A DNA stretch of 64,000 bases, taken from positions 32,001-96,000 of the IMG/VR virus record IMGVR_UViG_3300042945_001689, one strand, 5' to 3'. The notes beneath the pieces are model-generated. The model saw nothing but the letters and a program-made list of their open reading frames with translations. It had not been told where the DNA came from and made no database searches. Position 1 is the stretch's first letter. Each line of letters opens with the position of its first letter. Shown piece by piece: positions 11,434 to 46,145 of this stretch. Made by a program: the position numbers and the translations under genes. This stretch comes from a virus.

Positions 11434-12165
11434 CTACTTGTATGTTCTTTGTTCCCAAATTTTATTTTTATATACTCCACCATTTGGTTTTCTGTATATT
11501 TTACTATTTGCAATATTTTTATAAACTATAACATTTGAATTAATTATATTGAATTCACTTTCCCAATTATCCCTTTTAAATGGAATCATTTGAACTATTG
11601 GAGTACCTTTTGGTAATATTCCAGAAAATTCTTTATTTATAAAAAATGGCATGCTTCCTGGCAACAAGACCTTATCATTATCTACAATTCCAGAAACTGT
11701 ATAAAAAGGCAACTCAAACCTATTTAAAGGATGTGTATACAATACGCTATAACCCTCTGGAACTTGAATTCCCCAATCTGCAAACCAAGCAAAATGATCA
11801 TCTCTATATCCATGTGGTGTAACAAAACCATCCATTTTGCTTCTTGGTGTACAAAAATCTTTATATTTTAAGTCTTCTATTTCAACACTTAATCCATTTT
11901 CACTTTGTATAAAATTAATATCACACGGTGTTAAATATGTGTATCCAGATCCCATTACGTCAAAAACTGCTGGACAGGCCTTCCAAGTTGGCATTTTGCC
12001 ACCATCTTGCCCAATATAAAAATCATTATTTTGTGGATTTTTAATAAATCTATCCATTTTTCGATACCACTCTGGAATAGTTTTAAGTATAGATGTTGGC
12101 TTAAATAGACTGTCTTGGTTTAACCATGGTCTATTATTAGTAAAAATTATTTTTTTAATGTCCAT
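11434..12165 (-). CDS. Conserved phage hypothetical protein, distantly similar to the DUF6065-like neighbour
   Basis: IPEWY..., KACPAVFD..GSGY, GIVDND, LPKGTPIVQMIPFKR. Confidence 0.6.
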   Translation of the reverse strand: MDIKKIIFTNNRPWLNQDSLFKPTSILKTIPEWYRKMDRFIKNPQNNDFYIGQDGGKMPTWKACPAVFDVMGSGYTYLTPCDINFIQSENGLSVEIEDLKYKDFCTPRSKMDGFVTPHGYRDDHFAWFADWGIQVPEGYSVLYTHPLNRFELPFYTVSGIVDNDKVLLPGSMPFFINKEFSGILPKGTPIVQMIPFKRDNWESEFNIINSNVIVYKNIANSKIYRKPNGGVYKNKIWEQRTYK

Positions 12166-12881
12166 TATTTTTTTCTTTTATCATTTGTTTTTAATCTAAT
12201 TGTTTTTAATTCATGCTTTCCTACAGGAATATCTGATTCGTCTGTAGCATTTCTGTAAAAGTGTGTCCACTCACCAACTCTATTTTTTAATTGAGACACC
12301 TCTCCATATTTTTTATTTTTAATTTCATCTTCTTTAGAAAAAACATAATCATTAATATCTAATTCATATTGGTTTATGTTTTGTAAAGATATTGGAACAA
12401 TAGCAGCAATAGGAGTTTTTGCTGGAATTGTTATAACAACATTTGGTTTTGTAACTTTGGCTGCTAGTGGCAATGGATATCTAAAAAAAGAAGTAGAAAT
12501 AAGTGTTGTGTATAAATGAATTCCATCAATAAATAGATTTGGAACTGGCATTGTTAACAAAGTTGTATTTTCATCAGTAATAAATTTAGTAAATGTATCA
12601 AAACTTAGCGTTGCACTTCTTCTATTTTCATTGACATATTTGTTACCAGATAGGATAGTTATATGACCATCCTCTTTATCTGTATCAATTCCGTCCCAAA
12701 TAAAACTAATATCTTCATCAAAACTAATTCCCCAACCTAATGTATTTGAAATTGATAACGGAAAACAATGATATGCGTGTGCATTTGACACATTGTCCAT
12801 CCAATCTCTTTTAGCAGAAATTTGAGAGATGTTTACACCAGAATTTGGCATCATGTATGCATTAAAAACTTTATTAGTCAT
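12165..12881 (-). CDS. DUF6065-like protein (copy 1)
   Basis: KRDWMD...HAYHCFPLSISNTLGW motif; paralog of 24106-24825; start taken at MTNKVF. Confidence 0.6.
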   Translation of the reverse strand: MTNKVFNAYMMPNSGVNISQISAKRDWMDNVSNAHAYHCFPLSISNTLGWGISFDEDISFIWDGIDTDKEDGHITILSGNKYVNENRRSATLSFDTFTKFITDENTTLLTMPVPNLFIDGIHLYTTLISTSFFRYPLPLAAKVTKPNVVITIPAKTPIAAIVPISLQNINQYELDINDYVFSKEDEIKNKKYGEVSQLKNRVGEWTHFYRNATDESDIPVGKHELKTIRLKTNDKRKK

Positions 12882-13554
12882 TTGTTTCTTCATGAAGGTC
12901 TGGCCTATGATATTTTGCGCTATAATCAAGCATTGTTACTAACGAATATTTTGTTCCAGATACCACTGGCATTGCTGTATGAGGATACATATAGTTTGAT
13001 GGAAAAATATATAAATCACCTGCCTGTGGTTTAACTTTTATTCCTTGTAGTCTAAAATCCAACTCTCCACCTTCGTAATCATCATTTAAATATCCTACTA
13101 AAGAAACTACACAGTTATATGTAGGACCTTGATCATGATGCTCTTGAAAATGTTGTCCTGGACCATATTTTATAAAATTAAATGATTCCCAGTATCTTAG
13201 TTCTCCAACACGAAAAAAATGAGAGTAGTCTTTAACTGCTGGAAGTTGTAAGTCATAACAGTCCTGCCAGACTTCTTGCAGCAAAACTGATTGAACGCTT
13301 TTATCATTCAGTAAATTTTCTTTTCTATATTTAAAATCAACACAGTCTCTATATTCTGGAATTTTTTGGGCATATCCAACTAAAGCCTCTCTCCAAAAAT
13401 AATTTGGATTTTTGCCTGTTAGACTATTTTCTAGTCTACTAATTATTTTCATGTCTTTTTTAAATACATTTCTATAAACTGCTATTCCATCTGCAAGTAA
13501 TTCTTTACTATCCCAAGTTGGATTTTCAACAACATTTGGTTCAAAATTAATCAT
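12874..13554 (-). CDS. 2OG-Fe(II) oxygenase, prolyl 4-hydroxylase-like
   Basis: HHD...YLNDDYEGGEL...FPSNYMYPH...GTKYS. Confidence 0.88.
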   Translation of the reverse strand: MINFEPNVVENPTWDSKELLADGIAVYRNVFKKDMKIISRLENSLTGKNPNYFWREALVGYAQKIPEYRDCVDFKYRKENLLNDKSVQSVLLQEVWQDCYDLQLPAVKDYSHFFRVGELRYWESFNFIKYGPGQHFQEHHDQGPTYNCVVSLVGYLNDDYEGGELDFRLQGIKVKPQAGDLYIFPSNYMYPHTAMPVVSGTKYSLVTMLDYSAKYHRPDLHEETND

Positions 13555-14285
13555 TGTTGCCTTTCTGTGTAAGTATACTTATGTCCCAATTCATTAATAT
13601 CTGTCATAATAACAATACAATATTTTGTTCCATTAACCATGTCCATTGACGCATGCTCATAAATATAATTAGATGGAAAAATTGCTATATCACCAAACTT
13701 TGGTTTATAAACTAAGTTGTCTAGCCTTGGAAAAAATAATTCTCCGCCTTCATAATCATCATTTAAATAAATTACAACAGAAACTGTTGTATTATATGCT
13801 GGACCGTGATCTGCATGAATTCTAAATTGCTGTCCTACACCTTCATACTTTACAAAATTAAATGCTTCATAATAGACCACATTAATTCCCCAATAACGAG
13901 CATAGTCATCAACACATAATTTTAAAGTATTGTAAATTTCTTCATACATATCAATTAATTCAGCATTTTGCTCATCTCTTGCTCCCAGAGAATAAGGATT
14001 ATACTTAAAATCAGAGCAGTTTCTAGCATACTTTATTGGTTGATCTGAGTTTGTAACTTTTGCTTCATTCCACTTATACCTTGTTTGTCCATTTAAATTA
14101 TTTTCTAATATACTTAAATATTTTTCACAATTTTCTTTTGAAATTGCATTATTATAGATATTTAAACCTAATCCTGGATTGCTTACTTTAATATTATTAA
14201 AAGTTTTGTCTGGCATTCTAAAAGATGCAGATTCTGACCTATCTTTTGTAAACCAAGGATTTTGTGATTCATTTACTTCAATCAT
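13551..14285 (-). CDS. 2OG-Fe(II) oxygenase, prolyl 4-hydroxylase-like
   Basis: HAD...YLNDDYEGGEL...FPSNYIYEH...GTKY. Confidence 0.88.
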   Translation of the reverse strand: MIEVNESQNPWFTKDRSESASFRMPDKTFNNIKVSNPGLGLNIYNNAISKENCEKYLSILENNLNGQTRYKWNEAKVTNSDQPIKYARNCSDFKYNPYSLGARDEQNAELIDMYEEIYNTLKLCVDDYARYWGINVVYYEAFNFVKYEGVGQQFRIHADHGPAYNTTVSVVIYLNDDYEGGELFFPRLDNLVYKPKFGDIAIFPSNYIYEHASMDMVNGTKYCIVIMTDINELGHKYTYTERQQ

Positions 14286-14290
14286 TAGCG

Positions 14291-14336
14291 AGTCTCCTTT
14301 ATTTAATTATAGCATAAGAATTATTTAAAGGAGACT
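14291..14336 (-). promoter_or_regulatory. Internal extended -10 promoter inside an anti-Shine-Dalgarno hairpin
   Basis: 11 bp inverted repeat AGTCTCCTTTA / TAAAGGAGACT enclosing TGCTATAAT; downstream arm is the RBS of the gene starting at 14285. Confidence 0.65.
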
Positions 14337-14343
14337 GCGCTTT

Positions 14344-15648
14344 TTATTCAATACTTTGATCTCTTGTGTCATATACTAACATATTTTCTGTAAAGAAGTT
14401 GTCGTATGGTTCACAGTTAATCGAATATACTGTTTCTTCATAATTTAGAACGTCTAATGAATCAATATTGACAAACCCTAACTCTTCATATGAATATACC
14501 ATATATGTGTCATCAATTGAATCAATTCTTAAGAATTTTGAAACATTATCTTTTTTAGTTAAAATATAATGCGTTTCAGAATATGCATCGCCGTTAAGAA
14601 GATATACTTTATCTACTTGCTTTGATGATACTGCATAAACTGTAGTTTCTCTTAAATTGGTTTCATTTAGGATTAAGTCTTCTGCTGTCCAATTTAACCA
14701 ATCAGCGTTATGTGCTGAGGCTTGTTCTGGAAGTTCCATAGCAATTAAAACATCTCCTACAACTATGTCTTTGGCTTCTTTTCTGCCATTGGTAGTCATG
14801 ATGCCTGTATTGCTGGCAATGGAATACTCTGAGAATCCAAACCCTGGGAAAAATGGTCCGAATGGTGGTGGGAATGGTGGTGGGAATGGTGGTGGGAATG
14901 GTGGTGGGAATGGTGGTGGGAATGGTGGTGGTGCGAAACTTGGGAAGAACGGAAAGAACGGGAAGAATGGGAAAAATGGGAAGAATGGGAAGAATGGTGA
15001 AAGTGTAGTAACGCTAGAAGTTGTTGCTCCTAATGATGCTCCATTAGCATTTGTTGCAGTAACAGTGTAAGTCTGTGAAGTTCCTGCTGTATCAGCAATA
15101 GTTGATGATGTTGCTGATGATGCTAAATCTCCAGAAGAAGTTCCGTCAGAACCAGTAACGTTATGCTTAGATAAAGCCTTTCCACCAGTGGCACCAATTG
15201 TCCAACTGATTGTGTTTTGGTTAACACCAGCACTGGCGACCGCACCTTGAGGCGCTTGTGGAACTGTTGTTGCAGTTACTGAAGAAGAAGTTGTTCCGCT
15301 TGCAGTTCCTGCAGCGTTTGTTCCTTTTACTGTAAATGTGTATGAAGTATTTGATGCTAATCCCTGAAAAGTATAAGAAGGAGTGGAAGAGCCAGTATTT
15401 ACTTCGTAAGTTGAGGGGGTTGTTGTAATGATATAAGCAGTTGCTGCTGGAGATCCCGCTGGCAATGTCCAAGTAAGGCTTACTGCTCCACCTGTGCCTG
15501 CTGCAGATGCTGCTGAAGTAGTATTAGCAGTAGCAAGATAAGGACGAGATGTTCCTACATCTGTACCACTTAAGGAAGTAACATTATCTGGTTGCAAAAA
15601 GTTGTCTTGTGCTGAAGACTTGATACCTCTTTTTTTACTAACTGCCAT
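14344..15648 (-). CDS. FN3 domain(s) + (PFF)n(PPPF)n linker + C-terminal Hint-like domain protein (copy 1)
   Basis: FN3 signature (LTW...YTFQGL...YTFTVKGTNAAG); Pro/Phe repeats; Hint blocks SIASNT..TTNG.K...IVVGD, SETH, VYSINCE..NFFTENMLVYD. Confidence 0.8.
   Translation of the reverse strand: MAVSKKRGIKSSAQDNFLQPDNVTSLSGTDVGTSRPYLATANTTSAASAAGTGGAVSLTWTLPAGSPAATAYIITTTPSTYEVNTGSSTPSYTFQGLASNTSYTFTVKGTNAAGTASGTTSSSVTATTVPQAPQGAVASAGVNQNTISWTIGATGGKALSKHNVTGSDGTSSGDLASSATSSTIADTAGTSQTYTVTATNANGASLGATTSSVTTLSPFFPFFPFFPFFPFFPFFPSFAPPPFPPPFPPPFPPPFPPPFPPPFGPFFPGFGFSEYSIASNTGIMTTNGRKEAKDIVVGDVLIAMELPEQASAHNADWLNWTAEDLILNETNLRETTVYAVSSKQVDKVYLLNGDAYSETHYILTKKDNVSKFLRIDSIDDTYMVYSYEELGFVNIDSLDVLNYEETVYSINCEPYDNFFTENMLVYDTRDQSIE
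14852..14998 (-). repeat. Coding tandem repeats: 12 bp (CCACCACCATTC) x6 and 9 bp PFF-coding units x6-7
   Basis: Directly visible as GAATGGTGGTGG and GGGAAGAAY arrays on the plus strand. Confidence 0.95.
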
Positions 15649-15679
15649 TTTTACTCCTCTTTTCTATTATATCAAACTA

Positions 15680-17623
15680 TTATGCTTTTAAATCTCCCAT
15701 TACAACCCAAAGATTTGCTGCTCTCTTAAATAATGTTGCTGATGACCATTGTGCACGAAGTTTTAATCCAGGAGTTGCATTTACTGTTGTTGTTCCTGGT
15801 GTTACTGCTTCAATTGTCACTTCGCCAGTATTTGTTCGAAGAATATCAATTGATGTTCCGACTGGATAATTAAGTGTAGCATCTGTTGGGATTAAAACCT
15901 TAACTGCAGTTCCACCTGTATGTGAAACTTCAATTAATGAGTCTCTTTCATTTGCTGCTGAAAGGGTGTATTCTGCTGTCTTCTGAATAATTGATGTCCG
16001 TGATGGAACACCTTCTTTTGTTTGTGTACCGTCGGTAAAAATAAATCCACCAGCAGTTGTACTAATAACTGAAGTTCCGTTTACTTTAAGATCTTTTCCT
16101 GAAGCAAGGTTGATATGCTCGGAAGATGTCCAAGAATCTGTAGAATCTACCCAGTTAAAGGTTTTGTCTGTTGCGCCTTTAAGTGTAATACCTCCGCCAT
16201 CTGCAGTTGTATCAGTAGGAGTTCCTGTATCTCCAAGAACAATGTTTTTGTCTTCAATAACAAGGTTAGTTGAGTTAAGGTTTGTTGTAGTTCCATTAAT
16301 CGTTAAGTTTCCAGAAAGAGTTAAGTCTGTTCCAGAAACGGCTCCTGTAAATGTTGCTCCAGTAAGAGAAGCCTTAGCGTCTAACTGTGTTTGAATGGCT
16401 GAAGTTACCCCATCAACGTAGTTAAGTTCTGTAGTTGATGTGGTTACACCATCAAGAATGTTAAGTTCTGCTGCTGTAGAAGTAATAGAACTTCCAGCAA
16501 TCTGTAAAGTTGTGGCGTTTACTTCGCCTGCAGAGCCATAAATAACTGCTTTGCTATTTGCAATAGTTCCTGCTGATGATCCATCTACTAAGTTAAGTTC
16601 TGCTGCTGTAGAAGTAATAGAAGTGCCAGCAATTTGTAAAGTTGTAGCATTTACTTGGCCTGCTGGACCATAAATTACTGCCTTGCTATCTACAATTGTT
16701 CCAGCAATAGATCCATCTATTAAATTAACTTCTGATGCTGTTGCAGTGACATCTGTTGCACCTGCTGAAAGAACATGTGTATGACCTGTTCCTGCTTTTC
16801 CATCAATCTGTCCTTGAATTCCAGCAGAAACTCCTTCTAGGTACCCTATTTCTGTTGAAGATAGATCTCCAATTGATGTGGTACTTGGAAGAGTTACTGT
16901 TCCAGTAAATGTAGGACCTGCTAGTGCTGCTTTAGCATCTAACTGAGTTTGAATTGCTGAGGTTACACCATTAAGATAACTAATTTCAGTATTTGATACA
17001 TCTGCAACAACTGCTTGCTTATTGTCTAATTGTGTTTGAATTGCTGAAGTAACACCAGCAAGATATCCTAATTCTGTTGATGTTGCACCAGTTGCACTAA
17101 GGTTTCCTGTTGTAACAACAGTTCCGCTTACGTTTGGAAATGTAATAGTTCTATCGGCTGTAGGATCTGTTACTGTTAAAGTGGTTTCATAATCGTTTGC
17201 TGTAGTACCTTCAAAAACAATTCCTGTTGTAGCATTAATTGTTGTGCTGTTAATAGTAGTGGTTGTACCACTTACTGTTAAATCTCCTGAAACGGTAACG
17301 TTTCCACTACCATCGGACAAAACAACTGTGCCTGTTGCATCTGGAAATGTAATTGTACGGTCTGCTGTAGGATCTGTTACGGCAAGAGTTGTTTCAAATG
17401 CGTTGTCTGTAGCACCTTCAAATGTAATGCTTGAACCAAATGATGGGTTTACTGTAGAGGATTGGTCAATAAAGTAGTCAATATTTGCCCAGTGGTTAGT
17501 GCCATCACCGATCTTAAACTTATTAGTGTCTGATTCCCATCCGATTTCACCAGCATTTAGTATTGGGTTTGCTGATGTCCATTGTGCTGCAGTACCTCTG
17601 CGTTGCTGCATTCTTGTTGCCAT
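15680..17623 (-). CDS. Tail/head fibre-like protein
   Basis: N-terminal QQRRGTAAQW..NPIL..GEIG.E.DT.KFKIGDG (Mtd_N-like); internal GVTSAIQTQLD repeats; T/G/A-rich. Confidence 0.75.
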   Translation of the reverse strand: MATRMQQRRGTAAQWTSANPILNAGEIGWESDTNKFKIGDGTNHWANIDYFIDQSSTVNPSFGSSITFEGATDNAFETTLAVTDPTADRTITFPDATGTVVLSDGSGNVTVSGDLTVSGTTTTINSTTINATTGIVFEGTTANDYETTLTVTDPTADRTITFPNVSGTVVTTGNLSATGATSTELGYLAGVTSAIQTQLDNKQAVVADVSNTEISYLNGVTSAIQTQLDAKAALAGPTFTGTVTLPSTTSIGDLSSTEIGYLEGVSAGIQGQIDGKAGTGHTHVLSAGATDVTATASEVNLIDGSIAGTIVDSKAVIYGPAGQVNATTLQIAGTSITSTAAELNLVDGSSAGTIANSKAVIYGSAGEVNATTLQIAGSSITSTAAELNILDGVTTSTTELNYVDGVTSAIQTQLDAKASLTGATFTGAVSGTDLTLSGNLTINGTTTNLNSTNLVIEDKNIVLGDTGTPTDTTADGGGITLKGATDKTFNWVDSTDSWTSSEHINLASGKDLKVNGTSVISTTAGGFIFTDGTQTKEGVPSRTSIIQKTAEYTLSAANERDSLIEVSHTGGTAVKVLIPTDATLNYPVGTSIDILRTNTGEVTIEAVTPGTTTVNATPGLKLRAQWSSATLFKRAANLWVVMGDLKA

Positions 17624-17671
17624 ATTATTTTCCTCCTACAGAAAATTTCTTATTTTTATTATAACAGATAA

Positions 17672-18130
17672 TTAATTAAAGTTATCTGTTGCAACTCCTC
17701 CATCATAGGTATTTTCCCATGATGAAGTGCTATAGTCTCCTGCGCTTACTAGAACACCTGGTTCATTATAAGCACCTCCAGAAACAAATGTACTTACAAT
17801 AAGACCAGATCCATCAATTGCGGTATTGTGAATGTGGTCTTGTAATACTTCTGCATCTTCAAGAGTTGCAATTGCTACCCATTGAGATCCATAATAAACA
17901 TGAACTCTTTCTGTTAATGTGTCAAACCAAAGATTTCCATTTGATGGAGAATTTGGTGCTGTTCCGCTAACAGTTACTCCTGCACTACCCGCAACACTAT
18001 CAACATATGCTTTTGTTGCTGCATGTGTATTTTGAGTTGGAGTGGCAACTGTAACCGTTGATCCGAAAGTACCGCCATCGGCTACGACTAAGCCATGTTT
18101 TACCTTAAAATCTCTGTTTACAGTTGCCAT
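17672..18130 (-). CDS. Small fibre-associated structural protein
   Basis: AATKAYVD and PSNGNLWFDT fibre motifs; N-terminus shared with 18143-19969. Confidence 0.6.
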   Translation of the reverse strand: MATVNRDFKVKHGLVVADGGTFGSTVTVATPTQNTHAATKAYVDSVAGSAGVTVSGTAPNSPSNGNLWFDTLTERVHVYYGSQWVAIATLEDAEVLQDHIHNTAIDGSGLIVSTFVSGGAYNEPGVLVSAGDYSTSSWENTYDGGVATDNFN

Positions 18131-18142
18131 TTAATCTCCTTT

Positions 18143-19969
18143 TTATGCCTCTATGTATGTCTTTGAAACCTTAACAGAAGTATCTGCTGCTGCTGCAGTA
18201 ACTTGAAGAAGAACATTTCCACCGCTATAAACAGCATTTGTTGTTCCAAGTTCTGTATTGCTTATAACATTAGCATACTCTGTTACATAAACATTATTGT
18301 CACCATCTATAGCAACAAGCATTTCAATTACTTCAATGTTGCCAGACTTTTTCATCTGAATAACATACTTAGCAGCAGAATATGTTGTTGCTGAGAATGT
18401 ATCAATTGTTGTTGCTGAAGTGCCAGCAGTTGCTGTTGCAGATCCAACAAGAGCATCTGGTAGAGCAAGGCTAGTACCTGTTGCTGCTCCAAGTTCTGGA
18501 GTTACAAGAGTTGGTGTATTAGCAAATACCAGTGCACCAGTTCCTGTTTCATCAGTTACTGCTGAAGCAAGGTTTGCTGAAGAAGGGGTTCCCAAAAATG
18601 TTGCAACACCTGCTGCCAAACCAGAAACATCATTTGCAATTCTTACTGTAAGTGTATTGTTTGCACCGCTGATTGTCTTGTTTGTAAGAGTTTCGGCTGC
18701 ATCTTTAAGTGATGTTCCATTAACCTTAAATTCTTTTCCTGAAGCAAGGTTTAAGTGTTCAGATGAGGTCCATGCATCAGTTGCATCTACCCATGAGAAA
18801 GTCTTGTCTGTAGCACCCTTAAGAGTAATACCACCACCATCAGCACCTGCATCTGTTGGAGATGTTACTGCACCAAGTGTAAGGTTCTTGTCATCAACTG
18901 TGATTTCTGTTGAGTTAATTGTAGTTGTTGTACCGTTAACTGTTAGGTCCCCTGAAAGAACCAAAGATGTACCAGTTGCTGCACCAATGTTTGGTGTTAC
19001 GAGTGTTGGTGTATTAGCAAAAACAAGTGCTCCAGTACCAGTCTCGTCTGAAATAATTCCAGCGAGTTCTGATGAAGATGTTGCTGCAAGTACGTTTAAC
19101 TTATCTGTTGTTACAACAAGAGTCTTTGTGTTTGGAATAGTTGTACCATTGATAGAATCAGCAGTAGCAACACCAAGTGCTGGAGTTGTAAGTGTTGGGC
19201 TTGTAAGTGTCTTATTTGTAAGTGTCTGTGTGTTAGTTGTTCCAACTACCGCACCAGTTGCACCATGTGCTTCTGTAAGGTTGCCATGAGTTGTAAGATC
19301 TGAAGAAGTAGCCTTAGCATCCAACTGAGTCTGGATTGCTGAAGTTACGCCATCTACGTAGTTAAGTTCTGTAGCGGTTGCAGTAAGTGATGTACCAGCA
19401 ATTTGTAGAGTTGTAGCATTTACTTCTCCTGCTGCTCCATAAATAACTGCCTTACCATTTGCAATAGTCCCTGCAGATGATCCATCTACTAAGTTGAGTT
19501 CAGAAGCACTTGCAGTCAAATCCGAAACATTTGCTACTTGAACTGTAACTGTGTTGTTTGTATAAGAAATTGTTTTGTTGCTTAATGTTTGTGTTGCATC
19601 ATTAAGTGTTACAGTGCCTGTAGCGTTTGGAAGTGTGATAGTACGATCTGCTGTTGGATCTGCTACTTCAAGAATTGTCTCATAGTCATCTGCTGTTGCA
19701 CCTTCAAATGAAATTGAAGAACCAAATACACCAACGGCTGCTGGGGCTGACCACTCAACTCCGTATGTTGCACTTGAATTTGCTGTGAGGACCTGTCCGT
19801 TTGTACCAATGGCTAAACGTGCTACTGCATCATCTGCACTACCAACAATTAAGTCACCCTTAGCATCTACGGTTCCTGCGGTAAGAACATTCTTACCATT
19901 AACGGTTGCTGTTGATCCTTCAACAACTAATCCCGATTTTACTCTAAAATCTTTATTTACTGTTGCCAT
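18143..19969 (-). CDS. Fibre-like structural protein
   Basis: Shares several sequence blocks with 15680-17623; DETGTGALVFANTPTLVTP repeats. Confidence 0.72.
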   Translation of the reverse strand: MATVNKDFRVKSGLVVEGSTATVNGKNVLTAGTVDAKGDLIVGSADDAVARLAIGTNGQVLTANSSATYGVEWSAPAAVGVFGSSISFEGATADDYETILEVADPTADRTITLPNATGTVTLNDATQTLSNKTISYTNNTVTVQVANVSDLTASASELNLVDGSSAGTIANGKAVIYGAAGEVNATTLQIAGTSLTATATELNYVDGVTSAIQTQLDAKATSSDLTTHGNLTEAHGATGAVVGTTNTQTLTNKTLTSPTLTTPALGVATADSINGTTIPNTKTLVVTTDKLNVLAATSSSELAGIISDETGTGALVFANTPTLVTPNIGAATGTSLVLSGDLTVNGTTTTINSTEITVDDKNLTLGAVTSPTDAGADGGGITLKGATDKTFSWVDATDAWTSSEHLNLASGKEFKVNGTSLKDAAETLTNKTISGANNTLTVRIANDVSGLAAGVATFLGTPSSANLASAVTDETGTGALVFANTPTLVTPELGAATGTSLALPDALVGSATATAGTSATTIDTFSATTYSAAKYVIQMKKSGNIEVIEMLVAIDGDNNVYVTEYANVISNTELGTTNAVYSGGNVLLQVTAAAADTSVKVSKTYIEA

Positions 19970-19982
19970 TTTTTATCTCCTT

Positions 19983-20429: not shown

Positions 20430-20469
20430 ACCTAGATTATAACATAATTATTTTAATAGTTTTATAATT

Positions 20470-20697
20470 TTATAAAATATAGTTGCTTACACCAATCATT
20501 TGTAAGGGAATTGGTGGCGCATTATTAGCGTTAAAGGCTATAATATCTATATCAGTTATTCTTACTCTAAATGGTAAAAATTCATTTATTGTTATCCCTC
20601 TGTCAATCTTTTCTTCAATAGAAACTTTAGGAAATGTGTGTTGATCAATTGATTTTAATATTGTTGTTTGTTTATCAAATATTGCAACAGAAGCCAT
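20470..20697 (-). CDS. Hypothetical protein
   Basis: 75 aa ORF coupled to upstream gene. Confidence 0.6.
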   Translation of the reverse strand: MASVAIFDKQTTILKSIDQHTFPKVSIEEKIDRGITINEFLPFRVRITDIDIIAFNANNAPPIPLQMIGVSNYIL

Positions 20698-21098
20698 TAA
20701 CTTGTTACGTCTTCTAAAACAACCATTTGACCTCTAGCAACTGTCCAAACTCGTGTTGCATCAGATAGTTGAACATCAAAAACATCTCCAGTTTTTAATT
20801 GTGCTGACTGTACAGATGTTAATTTAACTGTAAATTCTCCAGTTTCATCTCCCGCGTCTGGGGCAGGCGTTATTGTAAATACTGTACCAGCAGAATCTTG
20901 ATCAAAATTATTTTCTATATCTGGTCTTCTAAATCTTGCAGCAATTGTCCAGTTGGCTATTACAAGTGGATTTTTAGCATCATCTGTAACATATATCCTA
21001 AATGCAACGGTATCTCCCTTTACAATTGTCCATTTTACTAATGGCGGGGCATCACCAATATCATAAACAGATTGTCCAGCACCTCTATAATTAGCCAT
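20697..21098 (-). CDS. Small baseplate/adaptor-like beta protein (family of three with 28389 and 29623)
   Basis: IVKGDT...FDVQ...ARGQMVVLEDVT pattern shared with the paralogs. Confidence 0.55.
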   Translation of the reverse strand: MANYRGAGQSVYDIGDAPPLVKWTIVKGDTVAFRIYVTDDAKNPLVIANWTIAARFRRPDIENNFDQDSAGTVFTITPAPDAGDETGEFTVKLTSVQSAQLKTGDVFDVQLSDATRVWTVARGQMVVLEDVTS

Positions 21099-21136
21099 AT
21101 AAGAATTATAACATAATTACAAGAATATGTAAAAAG

Positions 21137-21166
21137 TTGACAAAAAACAAAACTTCATGTTATACT
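21137..21166 (+). promoter_or_regulatory. Sigma70/SigA-type promoter
   Basis: TTGACA-18-TATACT upstream of the transglycosylase gene. Confidence 0.7.
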
Positions 21167-21215
21167 GGTAGGTAACACCATAAAAAATGGTGTTTTGTTT
21201 TCTAAGGAGGAAACT

Positions 21216-21782
21216 ATGATTAAATTTATCGAAAGAAACAAAGAGGTCATTAGTATACTCGGCATACTGACTTTAGTAACGACATTGTCAAACGTTGCTA
21301 ATGCTGAAACACGAATAAGTGACAAAAATAATTTGAGTATAGAACAGGCTCAGGAGCAGGAAAACGCCTCGAAAGAGGTTTTTTTGGTTTCTAAAGAAGA
21401 AAATAATAAAATTAACAAAAAATACAAATATGGAACCCCCCTTGAAAAAGACGAACTAATTAAAATATTAAAGCAAGTAGGCTTTAAAGGATATTCACTA
21501 AAGGTTGCTTGGGCAACGGTAATGAAAGAATCTATGGGCACTCCTAACTCTTGGAATCCTAATAGACAGACTGGAGATAATTCTTATGGCCTATTTCAAA
21601 TCAATATGCTTGGAGGACTGGGCGAAGAAAGAAGAAGCAAGTTTAATCTAAAGTCTAACGAAGATCTGTTTGATCCAGTTAGAAATGCAGAAATCGCTTA
21701 TCATATGAGTAATGGTGGTGAAGATTGGTCTGCCTGGAAAGGCATTACCTGGAAAACTAAAGAGTGGATGGAAAGATATTAA
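21216..21782 (+). CDS. Exported lysozyme-like lytic transglycosylase
   Basis: N-terminal hydrophobic signal with A-N-A site; KES, SYGLFQINM, LFDP..N, DWSAW motifs; AGGAGG RBS before ATG 21216. Confidence 0.8.
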   Translation: MIKFIERNKEVISILGILTLVTTLSNVANAETRISDKNNLSIEQAQEQENASKEVFLVSKEENNKINKKYKYGTPLEKDELIKILKQVGFKGYSLKVAWATVMKESMGTPNSWNPNRQTGDNSYGLFQINMLGGLGEERRSKFNLKSNEDLFDPVRNAEIAYHMSNGGEDWSAWKGITWKTKEWMERY

Positions 21783-22783
21783 TTTTTAATATCTTGTATT
21801 ATCTCTAAAAATCCTTCTGCCCAATGCATATGTTTATGAACTCCACTATGCCTTGCCTTTTTTGAATAATACTTTTCATCTTCTATGTCTGTTGATGTAT
21901 CAAAATTTTTTGGATACAAATGTCTTAAATGTTCGTGTTTATTACATTCGTCTAAATATACATCAAGTCCATCATCACTTTTGTACCATCTATTAGACTT
22001 TAAATAAACAAAATTATTTGATACATTTTCTTGTTGTGTTATTAAGTCATACAAAAAACCACTCCACGTTGACCATAAAAATAAAATTTTTGCTTCTTTA
22101 CAATACTGCTCTAACATTTTAATATATTGATATGAGTAAAAAAATGGTAAATCTGGAGAAAAAACATCTTCAGAATAATGTGGTTTTTTAGAATATTTTT
22201 CTGATTCTTGATAAATTACGTGAGTTGAAGACAACATACTCTCTGGATGTACTGGAAAATAAGTATTTTTTGTTATTAATGTTTCAGTATTTACTGGAAC
22301 CATAAATCTATAAAAATCTGGAAACAAACATAAAAGAGTTTTTGGATGACCATATTCTTCAAAATATTTATATATATTATTTATAATTGCAACAACAGAG
22401 TCTCCTGGTTGACTTATATTTGAATACTTTACATTTAAAGCCTTTGCTACTTGACTGCCCCATATTTCTTTTTCTGGCAATCCCAACCCAAATGTAAAAG
22501 AACAGCCACCAAAAACAAGTTCATTGTTTTCATTAAAATCTTTTCCTCTAAAACCTAAATTATTTATAATATATGAATTAGACTGGTCCAATAAAAATTC
22601 TGTTTCTGTATAATGTCCCGTCCATAGCAAACCATTTGGATACAAACCTGGTTTTCTTTTATTTGTAATAATCCAATCATTTAAAAATAAATGTTTAACA
22701 TTTTCATGATCAACTACATCATTTCCAATTAAACCTAAGTCACTTATAGTTTCTTTTATAGTTTTAGTATATGTATTTTTCAT
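21779..22783 (-). CDS. SGNH/GDSL-like hypothetical protein
   Basis: N..GFR..F...FGGCSFTFG motif; paralog of 61852-62730. Confidence 0.55.
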   Translation of the reverse strand: MKNTYTKTIKETISDLGLIGNDVVDHENVKHLFLNDWIITNKRKPGLYPNGLLWTGHYTETEFLLDQSNSYIINNLGFRGKDFNENNELVFGGCSFTFGLGLPEKEIWGSQVAKALNVKYSNISQPGDSVVAIINNIYKYFEEYGHPKTLLCLFPDFYRFMVPVNTETLITKNTYFPVHPESMLSSTHVIYQESEKYSKKPHYSEDVFSPDLPFFYSYQYIKMLEQYCKEAKILFLWSTWSGFLYDLITQQENVSNNFVYLKSNRWYKSDDGLDVYLDECNKHEHLRHLYPKNFDTSTDIEDEKYYSKKARHSGVHKHMHWAEGFLEIIQDIKN

Positions 22784-22833
22784 ATTTTTTATCCTTTTTT
22801 TTAAATATTTTTTTAAATTTATACAAATAATAT

Positions 22834-23424
22834 TTAATTTTTATTAACATATTTATTTCTAATTTCATTTTCAAATATTCTGTATTTAGTTGGAATCCAA
22901 AAAGATGGTGTGGTATATCTTGTGCCTTTTGTTATCTCCCGCACACCGTGTATATACATTGTGTTTGATGGGAAAAATACCAATGTACCAGCACTAGGTT
23001 TAAAGTCTAAGTTATGATCTGGGAAGTATATCTCTCCGCCTTCGTAGTCATCGTTCAAATATATAACAGCCCCATAGTCAACTATAAATGCTTCATTTGG
23101 ATGTCCTTCTGGATCTTCTCCATCTGCATGTAGTGGTTGAAACTCTCCTGCGTCCCATCTTCTTATTCCAGCAGAATTTGTTTCAAGAGGTCTTCCAAAA
23201 TAAAGTTCTATCTCTTGCTGTACTCTATCAATTGCTTTTTTTAGTATGGCATGGGCCTCTGGCTTTTCAGAAGCAAGATTTCTTGTTACTTTGTCTGGTA
23301 TTCCAGCCATTGAATTAGAACCCCAAGAAATTGTATCGTCTATTGATGATAATACAATGTCTAAATCTTTCTTTGAAACAAAATTTTCTTTTATAACAAT
23401 ATTTTTTGTAGATCCTATTTTCAT
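22834..23424 (-). CDS. 2OG-Fe(II) oxygenase, prolyl 4-hydroxylase-like
   Basis: HAD...YLNDDYEGGEI...HGV...GTRY. Confidence 0.88.
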   Translation of the reverse strand: MKIGSTKNIVIKENFVSKKDLDIVLSSIDDTISWGSNSMAGIPDKVTRNLASEKPEAHAILKKAIDRVQQEIELYFGRPLETNSAGIRRWDAGEFQPLHADGEDPEGHPNEAFIVDYGAVIYLNDDYEGGEIYFPDHNLDFKPSAGTLVFFPSNTMYIHGVREITKGTRYTTPSFWIPTKYRIFENEIRNKYVNKN

Positions 23425-23433
23425 TTTTTCTCC

Positions 23434-23592
23434 TTAATTAGGTAACTCTGATTGCTCTGCTATTTCTTTTACTTTGTCAAAGTTTGATGCATCAACCATT
23501 GAAGATAAAACATAACATATCCATTGATAAGATGACTTTTCGCAATACCCCTTTGACTGCATAATTTTAGCAATATCTTCTATAATTTCCAT
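23434..23592 (-). CDS. Small hypothetical protein (52 aa)
   Basis: MEIIEDIAKIM...; start overlaps upstream stop (TAATG) and fills the gap between two oxygenases. Confidence 0.55.
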   Translation of the reverse strand: MEIIEDIAKIMQSKGYCEKSSYQWICYVLSSMVDASNFDKVKEIAEQSELPN

Positions 23593-24113
23593 TACTTATA
23601 CTCCAAAAATATGTTAATTGCATATCTTGTTCCAGAATGAACCTGATGCGCTATGTGCATATATGGGTAGTTTGATGGAAATAATACCATAGAATTTTTT
23701 ACTGGCTTAACTTTAATGTCAAAGTTGCAAAATTCTATCTCTCCGCCTTCGTAGTCATCGTTTAAATATATAACGCAACTAGTAACTCTGTTAGAAACAT
23801 GCTTTGAGCCATCATCATAGTGCATTACATACTTTTCTCCAGGCTCGTATTTTAATGCCTCTATTGTAAGATATGTTAGTTCTGGAAGAAAATATAAATC
23901 ACGATATGCACTTAAAGAACTATGCAGCGCCTCATCTATAATTTTAAAAATTTCTTTTTGCAACTCTTTGTCTTGAAAGTATATGACTGAATTAGATCTA
24001 TCTTCTGTTTTTACATTTAGTGGTTTTGTCCACTCATACTTATTAATTTCTTTAATTAATAAATCTGAATTATTCAAAACATTATAATAAAACTCTATTC
24101 CGTTTTTATTCAT
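23592..24113 (-). CDS. 2OG-Fe(II) oxygenase, prolyl 4-hydroxylase-like
   Basis: HYD...YLNDDYEGGEI...FPSNYPYMH...GTRY. Confidence 0.88.
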   Translation of the reverse strand: MNKNGIEFYYNVLNNSDLLIKEINKYEWTKPLNVKTEDRSNSVIYFQDKELQKEIFKIIDEALHSSLSAYRDLYFLPELTYLTIEALKYEPGEKYVMHYDDGSKHVSNRVTSCVIYLNDDYEGGEIEFCNFDIKVKPVKNSMVLFPSNYPYMHIAHQVHSGTRYAINIFLEYK

Positions 24114-24825
24114 TTTTTTTCCTTATGTCTTTGGTATGCAACTTTATTTTTTTTACTTCGTGTGATCCAACAGAATTGCCAAATTGATCAGTAGCGCTTC
24201 GATAAAAATCAGAAAACTTTGGAATTTTATTATTTTCTAATATTACATTTCCATAGTCTGTTACTTTTTTATGGTATTCATTAATATTATGTGGATTATT
24301 ATTTAAAGTAATTGTAGAATTTTGTAAATTTGTTAAAGATATTGGCAAAACAGAAATAATTGGAGAGTTTGCTTTAAACGTAATAACAGTGTTTGGCCTT
24401 GTAATTTTCCAAGATACTGGTATAGGTTTTTGCCAAAAACTAGAACTAATTAAGTTTGTTAACGGAACTGCGCCATCAATGTCTAAATTTGGTGGACCAA
24501 AAAACAATAAACTAGTTTCTGGATTTGTTTCAAAAAACCAACCTATATTAAAAATTAGTGTTGCAGTTCCTCTGTTAGTGTCAACAAATTCTTTACCTTT
24601 TAAAACCGTTATGTGATTTCCTTCAGAAGAGTCGTTTCCATCCCAAACAACAGAAATATCTTTGGGGAATGAAAATCCCCATCCCATTTGATTTGTTAAC
24701 GATAAAGGAAAACACCTGTATGCATGTTGATCAAATGTTTTATCCATCCAGTCTCTTTTTAAAGAAAGTTGTTCTATTCTTGCACCTAAACCTGGATTTA
24801 CTTCATATGCATTGATTTCATACAT
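24106..24825 (-). CDS. DUF6065-like protein (copy 2)
   Basis: KRDWMD...HAYRCFPLSLTNQMGW; paralog of 12165-12881. Confidence 0.6.
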   Translation of the reverse strand: MYEINAYEVNPGLGARIEQLSLKRDWMDKTFDQHAYRCFPLSLTNQMGWGFSFPKDISVVWDGNDSSEGNHITVLKGKEFVDTNRGTATLIFNIGWFFETNPETSLLFFGPPNLDIDGAVPLTNLISSSFWQKPIPVSWKITRPNTVITFKANSPIISVLPISLTNLQNSTITLNNNPHNINEYHKKVTDYGNVILENNKIPKFSDFYRSATDQFGNSVGSHEVKKIKLHTKDIRKKNE

Positions 24826-25488
24826 TTATTGTTTTTGCCTTAGTGGAGAGTTTGCTCCGTGTACCCTATCATTATAGTCAAACATTGTTACTGCAGAATA
24901 TTTTATTCCTTCTTTTACAGGCAAAGCAGCATGAGAATATAAAAAGTTTGATGGGAACAAAACAATATCTCCCTCTTCTGGAGTATAAGTATAGTTTATG
25001 TATGGGAAAAACAATTCTCCTCCAGTATAGTTGTCATTTAAATACATAACTGTAGAAACAGTACATACATAACTAAAACCATGATCTGAATGAACCTGAA
25101 AGTGTTGATCTTTTCCATATCTAACAAAATTAACTGCTTCTTGATACTCTAAGTTTAAATTAAAAAGTGAAGAATAATGTTTTACACATTCCTGTAGTCG
25201 TTCATCTATGTCAAAGTATATTTTTCTTAAATCTGACATAGTTGCTCTTGGGTTATTTACAAAATCATTTTTTCTTACTTTAAAGTCTACGCAATCTCTA
25301 TAATCTTTTCTTGTTTCATAATCACCAACTTGTGCTTCGCTCCATTTGAAAAAATTATCGCCATGTTTTTCAATAACATCTTCAAGTCGCTGAACAAGAT
25401 TTAAGTCTTTATTAAGCGCATTTTTATAAACGAATACAGCAGGCGCAGGATTTTCTATAGTGGTTGTTTCTATAAAGTTAGATAACAT
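24826..25488 (-). CDS. 2OG-Fe(II) oxygenase, prolyl 4-hydroxylase-like
   Basis: HSD...YLNDNYTGGEL...YSH...GIKYS; YRDCVDFK shared with 12874-13554. Confidence 0.88.
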   Translation of the reverse strand: MLSNFIETTTIENPAPAVFVYKNALNKDLNLVQRLEDVIEKHGDNFFKWSEAQVGDYETRKDYRDCVDFKVRKNDFVNNPRATMSDLRKIYFDIDERLQECVKHYSSLFNLNLEYQEAVNFVRYGKDQHFQVHSDHGFSYVCTVSTVMYLNDNYTGGELFFPYINYTYTPEEGDIVLFPSNFLYSHAALPVKEGIKYSAVTMFDYNDRVHGANSPLRQKQ

Positions 25489-25527
25489 TTAATCTCCTTT
25501 TTGGTCAATATATAGTATACTACATAT

Positions 25528-26112
25528 ATGGACAATATGTATAAGGTACAACCTGGCTATTTTGGGGACTCTGTTGATAATATCATTGTTTTAGAAAATT
25601 TTATAAGTCCAGATGACTTAGATAAATTTTACTTTTACTCTAAATCAATAGAAAATTTTTTATCCATACCTGATGACAACTGGGACAACAGGGTTCATAG
25701 TTCAGAGTTATTTAAAAATAGTAATAAGGCATTATTTCTTAAACTTTTAGAATATCAAAAAAAATTAAAAATAGAAATAGAAAAAAGATTTAACTTTGTT
25801 TTACAAGAAAATTCACCATCAATAGTTCTTTGGAGACCTGGAGACGATCAGCCTCCTCATGCAGACAAACAGGAGCAAGATGGTAATCCAAATTCTTATC
25901 CTGAAAATGATGTGGCATCCCTAATGTATATAAACGACAATTATGATGGTGGAGAAATATACTTTACTAACCAGGATATAACCATAAAGCCCAAGGCTGG
26001 TTCTGCAATATTTTTTCCTGGAGATATACATTATACTCATGGGGTAACAAAAGTATTAAATAACAACAGATATACATCGCCAGCATTTTGGCGTGTAAAA
26101 AACTTTAATTAA
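25528..26112 (+). CDS. 2OG-Fe(II) oxygenase, prolyl 4-hydroxylase-like
   Basis: HAD...YINDNYDGGEI...HGV...RYTSP. Confidence 0.88.
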   Translation: MDNMYKVQPGYFGDSVDNIIVLENFISPDDLDKFYFYSKSIENFLSIPDDNWDNRVHSSELFKNSNKALFLKLLEYQKKLKIEIEKRFNFVLQENSPSIVLWRPGDDQPPHADKQEQDGNPNSYPENDVASLMYINDNYDGGEIYFTNQDITIKPKAGSAIFFPGDIHYTHGVTKVLNNNRYTSPAFWRVKNFN

Positions 26113-27014
26113 ATATTATCCCTAACATCAAAAACCAACATATTTTCTGTAAAGAAATTATCATATGGTTCGCAATTGATTGAATAAACCGTATCTTCAT
26201 ATTCTATAATATCGAACACTTCTATTGGAACAAACTGTAGATCAGCAAAAGAGTATACAAAATATGAACTATCAATTTCTGATGTTTGTATAAATTTAAC
26301 AACATTATCTTTTTTAGTTAAAATATAATGCGTTCCCGAATATGCATCTCCGTTAATTATATAAAGTGTACCGATAGGTCTTGAGGTAATAGAAACAACC
26401 TCTGTTTCTCTTAAATTGGTTTCATCTAATAATAAATCTTCTTTACTCCAAGTTGTCCAATCAGAAACATTGTTGGTATCTAAATCCATAGCAACCAAAA
26501 CGTCTCCTACTACAATATCTTTAGCGTCTTTTCTTCCATTAATAGTTATAATTCCAGTATTGCTTGCAATGGAATATTCTGAATAGACTCCAAACCCTGG
26601 GAAAAATGGTGGTATTGGGAACGGTGGTGGGAACGGTGGTGGGGCAACGGCGAACGGTGGTGGGAACGGTGGTGGGAACGGTGGTGGGAACGGTGGTGGT
26701 GCTGGGGCTACTGGAGTAACAGAATTACTTGCTGCAGATTCTAACGATGTAGCAACACCATTTCCTAGTTTTACTTTAAATGTATAGGCTGTTCCATTTG
26801 ACAAACCACTAACAGTTATTGGAGAAGTTGAAGATGTTCCTGTTATATCTGATGGAGTTGAAGTTGCAGTGTAAGTTGTTCCAATTGGTTTGCCTAAATA
26901 GGCTGGTGCTGTAAATGAAACTGTTGCTGTTTCATTACCTTCTGTTGCAGTTCCAATTGTTGGAGTTCCTGGTTGTATTCCTCCACTACCTGAAGATATT
27001 GGTGGTAATGGCAT
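26109..27014 (-). CDS. FN3 + (PPPF)n + C-terminal Hint-like domain protein (copy 2)
   Basis: Start MPLPP at 27014 overlaps upstream stop; FN3 (ITVSGLSNGTAYTFKV); PPPF repeats; Hint domain highly similar to copy 1. Confidence 0.8.
   Translation of the reverse strand: MPLPPISSGSGGIQPGTPTIGTATEGNETATVSFTAPAYLGKPIGTTYTATSTPSDITGTSSTSPITVSGLSNGTAYTFKVKLGNGVATSLESAASNSVTPVAPAPPPFPPPFPPPFPPPFAVAPPPFPPPFPIPPFFPGFGVYSEYSIASNTGIITINGRKDAKDIVVGDVLVAMDLDTNNVSDWTTWSKEDLLLDETNLRETEVVSITSRPIGTLYIINGDAYSGTHYILTKKDNVVKFIQTSEIDSSYFVYSFADLQFVPIEVFDIIEYEDTVYSINCEPYDNFFTENMLVFDVRDNI
26595..26700 (-). repeat. Coding tandem repeat (CCACCACCGTTC) x6, interrupted once
   Basis: GAACGGTGGTGG array on the plus strand. 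Confidence 0.93.
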
Positions 27015-27814
27015 TATGCACTCAGATCGCCAATTGCAATCCAAGTATTGGTTGCTCGTTTAATTAATGTACAAGATGAATACTGTGTTCTTAATTTTGC
27101 TGCATTTGAAGAAACTTGAGGTGTGCAATTTAGTGTAACTCCTGCAGTGACTACTACTGTTGTTGCTCCAGTTCCAGTTTGAATAATTGTAATTTGTGAA
27201 CCAATTGCAAATGCTTGAGTTGCATTAAGTGGAATAGTAACTGTATTTGCAGTTGATGTTAAATTCATTTCAATAATTTTATATGCATCTGACAAAACCA
27301 ATGCGTGATTTGCTGTTTTTTCTAAAATAGTAAAATCTAATGCAGATTTAGTATCTTGAACTGCTTTGACTGCAGTTGGTGTTGCTGCTTTAACTGATGA
27401 AGTCTCTGATGTTGAATCTGACAATTGAACAACTCCAGGTGTTGAAACTGATGCTGCTGTAGGTGCAGCCCATTTAAGACCAAATGTGCCCTGTGTTGAG
27501 TCTGCAGTTAAAATATGTCCATCGCTACCAACTGTTAAATTATCTAAATTATTATTTGATGTCCCTACTAAAAGATCGCCTTTAGCGTCAATGACAGTTT
27601 CTTCTACAGCATTTGTTAAAGTTGCATCAATTGCATCAATTCTTGTATCTATATCATCTAGATACTTTGAAATACCTGCGGTTGCTGTGCCTTCTGGCTC
27701 TGCTTCTTGTCCCCAATGATAATATTTAAGTGCAACCTGTATGTCGGCTGGATCAGCCATTGCTGGAATTTTTGCTAGGGGATACTTAGAACTTCCTATA
27801 TTTGTGGCTGCCAT
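27014..27814 (-). CDS. Fibre-like structural protein
   Basis: DAKGDLLVG block shared with 18143; GVVQLSDST..AATP.AVK fibre repeat; C-terminal domain shared with 15680-17623. Confidence 0.7.
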   Translation of the reverse strand: MAATNIGSSKYPLAKIPAMADPADIQVALKYYHWGQEAEPEGTATAGISKYLDDIDTRIDAIDATLTNAVEETVIDAKGDLLVGTSNNNLDNLTVGSDGHILTADSTQGTFGLKWAAPTAASVSTPGVVQLSDSTSETSSVKAATPTAVKAVQDTKSALDFTILEKTANHALVLSDAYKIIEMNLTSTANTVTIPLNATQAFAIGSQITIIQTGTGATTVVVTAGVTLNCTPQVSSNAAKLRTQYSSCTLIKRATNTWIAIGDLSA

Positions 27815-46111: not shown

Positions 46112-46145
46112 GGTGTTTACTGTTCTATTTACCGCCGAACTTTAA
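46112..46145. repeat. 34 bp direct repeat (second copy 47251-47284) flanking pstS
   Basis: GGTGTTTnnTGTTCTATTTACCGCCGAACTTTAA, last 25 bp identical. Confidence 0.9.

Follow-up and report, generated by a model that had tools for sequence, protein, structure and literature searches.

Genes for prolyl 4-hydroxylase (P4H)-like 2-oxoglutarate-Fe(II) (2OG) oxygenases count among the commonest "auxiliary" genes that aquatic phages carry, and they have been treated as metabolic genes or their use has been called cryptic (PMC3037559, PMC9301287). The P4H of PBCV-1, as cited in PMC9301287, acts on the virus's own Pro-rich repeats (Eriksson 1999). For virion glycosylation of mycobacteriophages, the work cited in PMC12801897 has glycosyltransferases acting directly on the tails of capsid and tail-tube proteins (Freeman et al. 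2023, PMC10527164). Hint domains without a splicing partner are described as cleaving off or transferring the part upstream of them (PMC8616854). Here we analysed a 64,000-nucleotide window, bases 32001-96000 of the 108-kb IMG/VR virus record IMGVR_UViG_3300042945_001689 (rated 99% complete), and in particular window positions 11434-27814, where the minus strand carries nearly all genes. Open reading frames (ORFs), Pfam, PHROG and all-against-all blastp revealed two paralogous minus-strand cassettes of a fibre, a protein of FN3 domain(s), Pro/Phe repeat and Hint domain (designated H, and H' in cassette B), P4H-like 2OG oxygenases and DUF6065. The best single hypothesis, to which we give slightly less than an even chance, is that the Pro/Phe tract would be hydroxylated by the neighbouring enzymes. 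The virus is an uncultured, actinophage-like freshwater phage of ~108 kb, with a portal 47% identical to portals of Streptomyces phages; from its sequence we can only infer an actinobacterial host. The titles of the metagenome-assembled genomes (MAGs) that hold contigs of this phage family point to lakes and estuaries.

The two cassettes consist of the following features, given in window coordinates.

15680-17623, minus strand: cassette A fibre, 647 amino acids (aa), with an Mtd_N N-terminus (Pfam E 2.7e-13) and tail-fibre PHROG matches
~15683-15991, minus strand: C-terminal fibC domain of the cassette A fibre, 40% identical to the cassette B fibre C-domain
14344-15648, minus strand: cassette A H, 434 aa (fn3 E 2.7e-8; Intein_splicing E 8e-5, below cut-off)
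13551-14285, minus strand: P4H-like 2OG-Fe(II) oxygenase, long type, 244 aa (PF13640 E 3.4e-12; HxD...H...K)
12874-13554, minus strand: P4H-like 2OG-Fe(II) oxygenase, long type, 226 aa (PF13640 E 2.9e-15), paralogue of 24826-25488
12165-12929, minus strand: DUF6065 protein, 254 aa by ORF (PF19541 E 1.1e-25, 90.9 bits, cut-off 26.6)
11434-12165, minus strand: phrog_7084 protein, designated P, 243 aa (phrog_7084 E 1.3e-34), last gene of the module, directly before the class II ribonucleotide reductase (RNR)
27014-27814, minus strand: cassette B fibre, 266 aa (Phage_fiber_2 E 7.5e-7; PHROG tail matches)
~27017-27328, minus strand: fibC domain of the cassette B fibre, matched by blastp to the cassette A fibre C-domain
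26109-27014, minus strand: cassette B H', ~301 aa (fn3 E 7e-5; Intein_splicing E 5e-3, sub-threshold)
25528-26112, plus strand: P4H-like 2OG-Fe(II) oxygenase, short type, 194 aa (PF13640 E 5.7e-10; catalytic residues present)
24826-25488, minus strand: P4H-like 2OG-Fe(II) oxygenase, long type, 220 aa (PF13640 E 6.3e-13; catalytic residues present)
24106-24825, minus strand: DUF6065 protein, 239 aa (PF19541 E 4.9e-36, 124.8 bits, cut-off 26.6)
23592-24113, minus strand: P4H-like 2OG-Fe(II) oxygenase, 173 aa (PF13640 E 7.6e-17)
22834-23424, minus strand: P4H-like 2OG-Fe(II) oxygenase, 196 aa (PF13640 E 1.6e-9; catalytic residues present)

Blastp showed that the matching members of the two cassettes are paralogous, with E values from 1e-11 to 8e-74: the Hint parts are 63% identical over 164 aa (E 8e-74), the DUF6065 proteins 46% (E 6e-67), the oxygenases at 12874-13554 and 24826-25488 42% (E 5e-56) and the fibre C-domains 40% over 108 aa (E 1e-11). 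The gene set is thus present twice, and the fibres of both copies share a C-terminal domain, as the original prediction, made from the sequence of the window alone, had stated. An HMM (hidden Markov model) of fibC placed this domain just upstream of H in most related loci. H' probably starts at the ATG at 27014 because aligned homologues begin there, and this start gives a 1-nucleotide overlap with the fibre stop codon. Six of the seven PF13640 genes lie in the two cassettes, beside the Pro-rich genes, and this count, first made for the window, holds for the whole 108-kb genome, the seventh gene being at 49848-50510. Two further statements needed correction. One DUF6065-like gene per copy is right for cassette B, whereas cassette A has, besides one true PF19541 member, the phrog_7084 gene, a probable distant relative. 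The repeat is a Pro/Phe tandem repeat in both copies, but it is not PPPF only in cassette A, where (PFF)6 precedes (PPPF)6.

In H of cassette A, a conserved N-terminal peptide is followed by two FN3 domains, the (PFF)6(PPPF)6 tract (~14824-15000) and the Hint domain (14347-14823); H' has one FN3 domain, a (PPPF)n tract (~26577-26711) and the Hint domain (26112-26576). At the DNA level, the tracts appear as tandem repeats at 14860-14931 (period 12, 6 copies, 100% match, encoding (PPPF)6), 14941-14997 (period 9, 6.3 copies, encoding (PFF)6) and, in cassette B, 26616-26699 (period 12, 7.2 copies). The two tracts, which are slippage-prone, are by far the most Pro-rich stretches of the genome, with 20 Pro in 30 residues, the next richest having 12. 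Among relatives, the tract before the Hint domain is hypervariable, taking the forms (PFF/PPF)n, (FGFTP)n, (FSP)n, (GAF)n and (GFxHY)n. An ORF antisense to H (14657-15070, plus strand) was rejected as a gene, being the repeat read on the opposite strand.

All seven PF13640 genes score 30.8-62.5 bits against a curated cut-off of 27, and in each of them the HxD...H iron triad is present, as is the 2OG-binding Lys/Arg ten positions beyond the second His. The closest solved relatives of the oxygenases are bacterial, PBCV-1 and algal P4Hs and collagen lysyl hydroxylases. The best PDB matches of the oxygenase at 23592-24113 were the Bacillus anthracis P4H (3itq/5hv0, E 6e-7) and the PBCV-1 P4H (5c5t, E 3e-5), and the oxygenase at 12874-13554 gave weak matches to LH3, the B. 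anthracis P4H and the PBCV-1 P4H. With intact catalytic residues (HxD...H...K/R) and peptidyl-prolyl or peptidyl-lysyl hydroxylases as nearest solved structures, the label "prolyl-hydroxylase-like" given to these enzymes appears fair at the family level.

A search of IMG/VR returned 162 relatives of H, and 78 loci (labelled with L-numbers) were fetched. Gene maps of each locus were drawn with HMMs built from the window's own paralogues, and 58 scorable non-redundant H genes formed the sample for co-variation. The result showed that arrays of two or more oxygenases come after H in 17 of the 20 Pro-rich cases compared with 1 of 38 others (naive Fisher p 1e-10), that DUF6065 follows H in 15 of 17 Pro-rich forms compared with none of 36 others, and that the proline fraction correlates with the oxygenase count (Spearman rho 0.76). 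Related phages therefore show the predicted enrichment of oxygenases beside Pro-rich H, in which DUF6065 shares, albeit on few independent contrasts. In relatives, Pro-rich H is followed immediately by an orthologue of the oxygenase at 13551-14285. In more distant phages (portal identity 40-50%), the Hints are of the Cys type and the tracts are (FFxPPx)n or (PPYF)n, and oxygenase-DUF6065 arrays were found in most of 133 such loci, which, having been fetched with Pro-rich queries, show persistence and not contrast.

Nearly all loci have a common gene order: a lysozyme-like gene, small genes, fibre, fibre, H, phrog_7084, RNR, a gene for a 1199-aa protein and the portal gene. Across the relatives sharing this backbone the RNR is 83-99% identical, and nearly all fetched loci are, by their sequences, one phage family. 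Gene order alone proves little because nearly all loci have this one backbone, and the order fibre-H-phrog_7084 was accordingly rejected as independent synteny evidence. When backbones were classed by RNR identity (95-100%, 87-89% and 84%), both module types were present in each class. In locus L009, the DNA is 97% identical to the window from 11429 on, just past the phrog_7084 gene, whereas between 11429 and the middle of the fibre gene it has a different cassette, with another H and phrog_7084 and no oxygenases. Both module types in each RNR class, together with the L009 swap, indicate that the module moves as a unit. Searches against isolated phages gave no match for the whole region by megablast or for full-length H by tblastn, and a promoter and terminator scan of the region gave results no different from shuffled sequence.

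Several points weigh against hydroxylation of the tract by its neighbours. In a tree of the Hint domains, the Pro-rich-plus-array forms make up one large clade and one or two outliers, so that there are two to three independent contrasts and a sign test is not significant; because of this, the naive p-values (~1e-10) are not valid in that form. All loci come from a single broad phage group with a common fibre module. One to three 2OG genes lie within 10 kb in 18 of 35 non-Pro-rich relatives, often paired with DUF6171, and in some genomes a second Pro-rich H has no adjoining oxygenase. Both array sites are variable spots that gather accessory genes, and genes that adjoin each other travel together irrespective of function. 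As many as ten paralogous oxygenases exceed the obvious need of one substrate, and the similarity to solved P4Hs is weak (E 1e-3 to 6e-7). The claim that the PPPF tract is the hydroxylase substrate is thus strengthened by the tracking of Pro-rich H by arrays and DUF6065 and by the unique proline content of the tract, and weakened by the small number of contrasts and by the single 2OG genes at non-Pro-rich H.

The explanation that best survives beside tract hydroxylation is that the oxygenase arrays and DUF6065 form accessory islands at variable spots downstream of the fibres, with host proteins or small molecules as substrates, and that the link to Pro-rich H reflects lineage and linkage. The paucity of independent contrasts behind that link agrees with it, as does the metabolic or cryptic role given to such genes in the literature (PMC3037559, PMC9301287). 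Moreover, where relatives have no Pro-rich H, single 2OG genes still occupy these two array sites, one of them upstream of the lysozyme-like gene and the other between the genes for RNR and the 1199-aa protein. The nearest relatives of the oxygenases in isolated phages are 2OG-Fe(II) genes of T4-like cyanophages (~30% identity); these cyanophages have this broad 2OG group in abundance but no H. However, no block of two oxygenases and DUF6065 was found beside a non-Pro-rich H in ~190 loci, arrays follow most Pro-rich H genes, and the block has been duplicated along with H in this genome. Protein glycosyltransferases of PF11397 co-occur with the oxygenases in relatives, and this genome has no other strongly Pro-rich sequence. 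On balance we consider accessory islands unlikely, though they keep an appreciable share of the probability. Of the oxygenase arrays of aquatic phages, to which the original prediction hoped to give a role, H cannot explain those of cyanophages because the H family is absent from isolated cyanophages (tblastn).

A second possibility is that the oxygenases modify other virion proteins, either a collagen-like protein or the fibres, with H a mere neighbour. A PF01391 collagen-repeat protein is encoded just upstream of cassette B (28794-29540, minus strand, E 5.6e-9), collagen P4Hs and lysyl hydroxylases are among the closest solved relatives of the oxygenases, and collagen-like repeats are present in Hint proteins of jumbo phages. 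Nevertheless, the collagen-like stretch here has ~14 Gly-X-Y triplets with a single X-Pro-Gly site and would make a poor substrate, and modification of such proteins leaves the tracking of H proline content by the arrays unexplained. We regard it as improbable.

The remaining alternative concerns nucleotides and turns on phrog_7084 and DUF6065. The AlphaFold2 (AF2) model of phrog_7084 (predicted local distance difference test, pLDDT, 89) had as its top 22 structural neighbours (VIA) members of the dUTPase/dCTP-deaminase superfamily only, with Z up to 9.1, compared with Z 3-4 for unrelated matches, and Foldseek also matched it to the dUTPase-like fold (E 6e-4). Two strings, IIDxD and GTPxVQ, resemble dUTPase motifs III and IV, and only these of the five motifs were seen. 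By hhalign, phrog_7084 aligned with DUF6065 over 130 columns (probability 87%, E 4e-6). The sequence of phrog_7084 has no Pfam match, a dUTPase match included, and neither its profile nor that of DUF6065 had a match in the PDB. Structure modelling and profile comparison together suggest that phrog_7084 has a dUTPase-like fold and is a distant relative of DUF6065. Homologues of phrog_7084 were found in ~50 records of haloarchaeal tailed viruses, beside thymidylate synthase and DNA polymerase genes (e.g. halovirus HSTV-2 gene 40, L079). The L009 recombination boundary at window 11429 shows that phrog_7084 was exchanged with the fibre C-terminus and H and not with RNR, and for this reason its assignment to an RNR module was rejected. 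Action of DUF6065, phrog_7084 and the oxygenases on nucleotides or DNA rather than protein, to which the fold, the two motif strings, the adjoining RNR gene here and the neighbours of the HSTV-2 homologue might point, is very improbable, as every solved PF13640 relative found is a protein hydroxylase, phrog_7084 is swapped with fibre and H but not RNR and has no Pfam dUTPase match, and the herpesvirus dUTPase-fold matches in its list are non-enzymatic tegument proteins. For DUF6065 itself, tblastn against isolated phages gave no match and a literature search found no papers. A scan of genome contigs returned only nine loci; they give no cellular context because all are contigs of the same phage family binned in MAGs of unrelated phyla.

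The tract is capped by the Hint domain, for which the Pfam matches were sub-threshold but other lines of evidence are stronger. An AF2 model built from a 33-sequence alignment (pLDDT 90) matched, by Foldseek, 6y75 (Tetrahymena BUBL BIL2, where BIL denotes bacterial intein-like; E 6e-8, template modelling (TM) scores 0.70/0.77), and further top matches were the Ssp DnaB mini-intein, the Clostridium thermocellum BIL 2lwy and Hedgehog 1at0. There were 58 PDB matches at E<=1e-3, and among the matches listed all were inteins, BIL domains or Hedgehog. The Hint sequence profile gave weak PDB matches to BIL and intein chains, in which the conserved Ser was aligned with the intein Cys1. Ser276 of copy A, the first Hint residue, is invariant in alignment A1 and at least 90% conserved in alignment A4, the block-B His360 is invariant in both, and more distant members have Cys as the first residue. 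Taken together, the predicted fold and the conserved Ser1 and block-B His indicate that the Hint domain, recognized as Hint-like from the start, is genuine.

The C-terminal His-Asn of inteins and a C-extein nucleophile are absent in A1 and A4, where the domain ends in MLV[FY]D followed by 2-10 residues and a stop. Because there is neither His-Asn nor an extein, splicing is excluded and N-terminal cleavage or transfer is the sole chemistry left. Loci L083 and L085 encode FN3 domains and a (PFF)n tract without a Hint domain, and these proteins end a few residues past the tract, near the predicted cleavage site; they would correspond to the predicted cleavage product made directly. From the conserved residues and these Hint-less forms, it is probable that the Hint domain cleaves itself off. 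Because natural Hint-less forms end right after the repeat, plain release is favoured over obligatory ligation. Of the two outcomes originally put forward, release is the one favoured, and ligation is not supported and in our estimate improbable. By analogy with BUBL BIL2 or Hedgehog, the Hint ester intermediate would attach the hydroxylated tail covalently elsewhere, which we likewise think improbable; possible acceptors would be a lysine of the fibre C-domain, the phrog_7084 protein or a host-envelope component. If true, virion assembly or adsorption would include a protein-ligation step that is encoded by the phage and needs no ATP.

Among 1.84 billion cluster representatives searched, this Hint type was found in 1024 clusters. 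In almost all of the 107 listed matches with enough upstream sequence, the Hint domain is at or near the C-terminal end, mostly behind a low-complexity tract. Against isolated phages, tblastn with the Hint domain alone found only five jumbo-phage records (Erwinia, Yersinia, NCTB), in collagen-like tail proteins. In the Yersinia and Erwinia jumbo phages, a collagen-like protein encoded a short way upstream of the tail-fibre genes ends in a Hint of this kind; in Yersinia phage fHe-Yen9-02 (L090:1496-2938, plus strand), it is a "virion structural protein" with collagen-like Gly-X-Y repeats and a canonical C-terminal Hint having Cys1...His-Asn, directly upstream of tail-fibre genes. No relevant paper on Hint domains in combination with tail fibres came up in a literature search.

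The original prediction also considered that the hydroxylated tract might be glycosylated or yield a product like a ribosomally synthesized and post-translationally modified peptide (RiPP). In relatives, a glycosyltransferase gene of PF11397, the family of the Skp1 hydroxyproline GlcNAc-transferase, lies beside the oxygenases in L067/L056, L061/L062 (directly after H), L023, L047, L050, L078 and L085 (matches with E 3e-36 and 4e-33), often accompanied by a small DUF6171 zinc-ribbon gene. These neighbours support hydroxylation followed by glycosylation of protein as a general business of the oxygenases. In this genome, no PF11397 gene was found by tblastn or by a family search whose controls gave no signal, so glycosylation of the tract here is not supported. 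A RiPP-like peptide is not supported either: H is a multidomain FN3 protein of 300-430 aa in a fibre module, and neither a short leader-core precursor nor, in either cassette, a protease or exporter gene was seen. The window does encode a DUF6171-like zinc-ribbon protein (31192-31377, plus strand, tblastn E 4e-16) with no oxygenase adjoining it; in relatives, DUF6171 is directly before a 2OG oxygenase, often with a PF11397 glycosyltransferase. L067 (positions 1-573, plus strand) encodes a Cys-Hint protein with a (TIA/TIN)n tract, not Pro/Phe, the next genes being those for two oxygenases, DUF6171 and a PF11397 glycosyltransferase. A search of IMG/VR with this Cys-Hint returned only L067's own contig, making it a singleton, and a search with the Cys-Hint of L082 found no relatives.

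Other observations were made in and around the cassettes. The cassette A fibre gene contains a 132-nucleotide tandem duplication (16460-16741; 2.1 copies, 85% match). Cassette B is closed by a 334-aa gene (21779-22783, minus strand) without a Pfam or PHROG match, for which the ESM Atlas gave only a weak SGNH/GDSL-hydrolase lead and homologues of which lie beside oxygenases in L002, L018 and L046. In L008 (1306-2367, plus strand), as in several relatives, a Gly/Ser/Cys/Thr-rich protein (350 aa in L008) with no family match takes the place of H after a cassette B-type fibre. The class II RNR gene (9284-11317, minus strand) and the gene of the 1199-aa protein, whose family is unassigned (5669-9268, minus strand), sit between the fibre modules and the portal, protease and capsid genes (3684-5285, 2350-3642 and 1203-2333), an unusual placement for an RNR gene. 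A PstS-like phosphate-binding protein, typical of the auxiliary genes of aquatic phages, is encoded at 46142-47185 (minus strand, PBP_like_2 E 2e-40).

We propose that the cassettes may be two paralogous host-recognition modules, in each of which a fibre with the common C-domain is followed by H as an accessory protein. The Hint domain would remove itself by an N-to-O acyl shift at the invariant X|Ser junction and subsequent hydrolysis, which, to judge from the conserved residues and the Hint-less forms, would leave an FN3 protein ending in a Pro/Phe tail. Adjacency, co-variation and family resemblance suggest that the adjoining P4H-like oxygenases hydroxylate the prolines of this tail, either ahead of assembly or in its course. 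Some relatives have a GT60-type enzyme that may then glycosylate the hydroxyproline, a step for which this genome has no such enzyme. DUF6065 always accompanies the oxygenase array and phrog_7084 always closes the module; with a predicted dUTPase-like fold in both, they could act as a partner or chaperone or as an enzyme. The tract is a concrete phage-encoded candidate substrate, and H-type tails were found on several hundred metagenomic contigs. If the proposal is true, these oxygenase genes would be re-filed from metabolic to virion-decoration enzymes, hydroxyproline (in relatives glycosylated) would be added to phage structural biology, and Hint would act as a removable cap in phage fibre maturation.

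Peptidase_S74-type C-terminal intramolecular chaperones of phage tail fibres and tailspikes cleave themselves off, and the predicted behaviour of H is similar in that a C-terminal domain of a fibre-region protein would leave after its job while the mature fibre part stays. However, fold and chemistry are unrelated (Hint compared with a Ser-Lys dyad), the window has no S74 Pfam match, and a chaperone role for Hint is speculation. The Hedgehog C-terminal and BIL domains (6y75) resemble the Hint domain of H in fold, C-terminal position, position-1 nucleophile, block-B His and lack of a splicing partner. They differ in that this clade has Ser instead of Cys and F/Y-Asp in place of His-Asn, with no sterol-recognition region and no downstream ubiquitin-like acceptor, and natural Hint-less variants here suggest plain release. 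Mycobacteriophage virion glycosylation, as far as it is described in the work citing it, is alike in that actinophage enzymes decorate terminal low-complexity extensions of virion proteins, but that system, in the same account, has no oxygenase step and no Hint. The Skp1 pathway (P4H PhyA and GT60 Gnt1) and the plant extensin hydroxyproline glycoproteins share with the relatives the succession of a P4H-like enzyme and a PF11397 GlcNAc-transferase; in contrast, no PF11397 gene was found in this genome, the candidate substrate is a repeat tract and not a single proline, and the loci often contain DUF6171. With PBCV-1 (5c5t) the locus has in common a viral P4H-type oxygenase alongside virus-encoded Pro-rich tandem repeats. 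The sequence similarity is weak (E 3e-5), and the putative system here differs from that of PBCV-1 in belonging to a tailed phage with a prokaryotic host, in having arrays of 2-10 paralogues instead of one enzyme, and in having a Pro/Phe repeat that is fused to FN3 and Hint domains within a fibre module, with DUF6065 as a constant companion.

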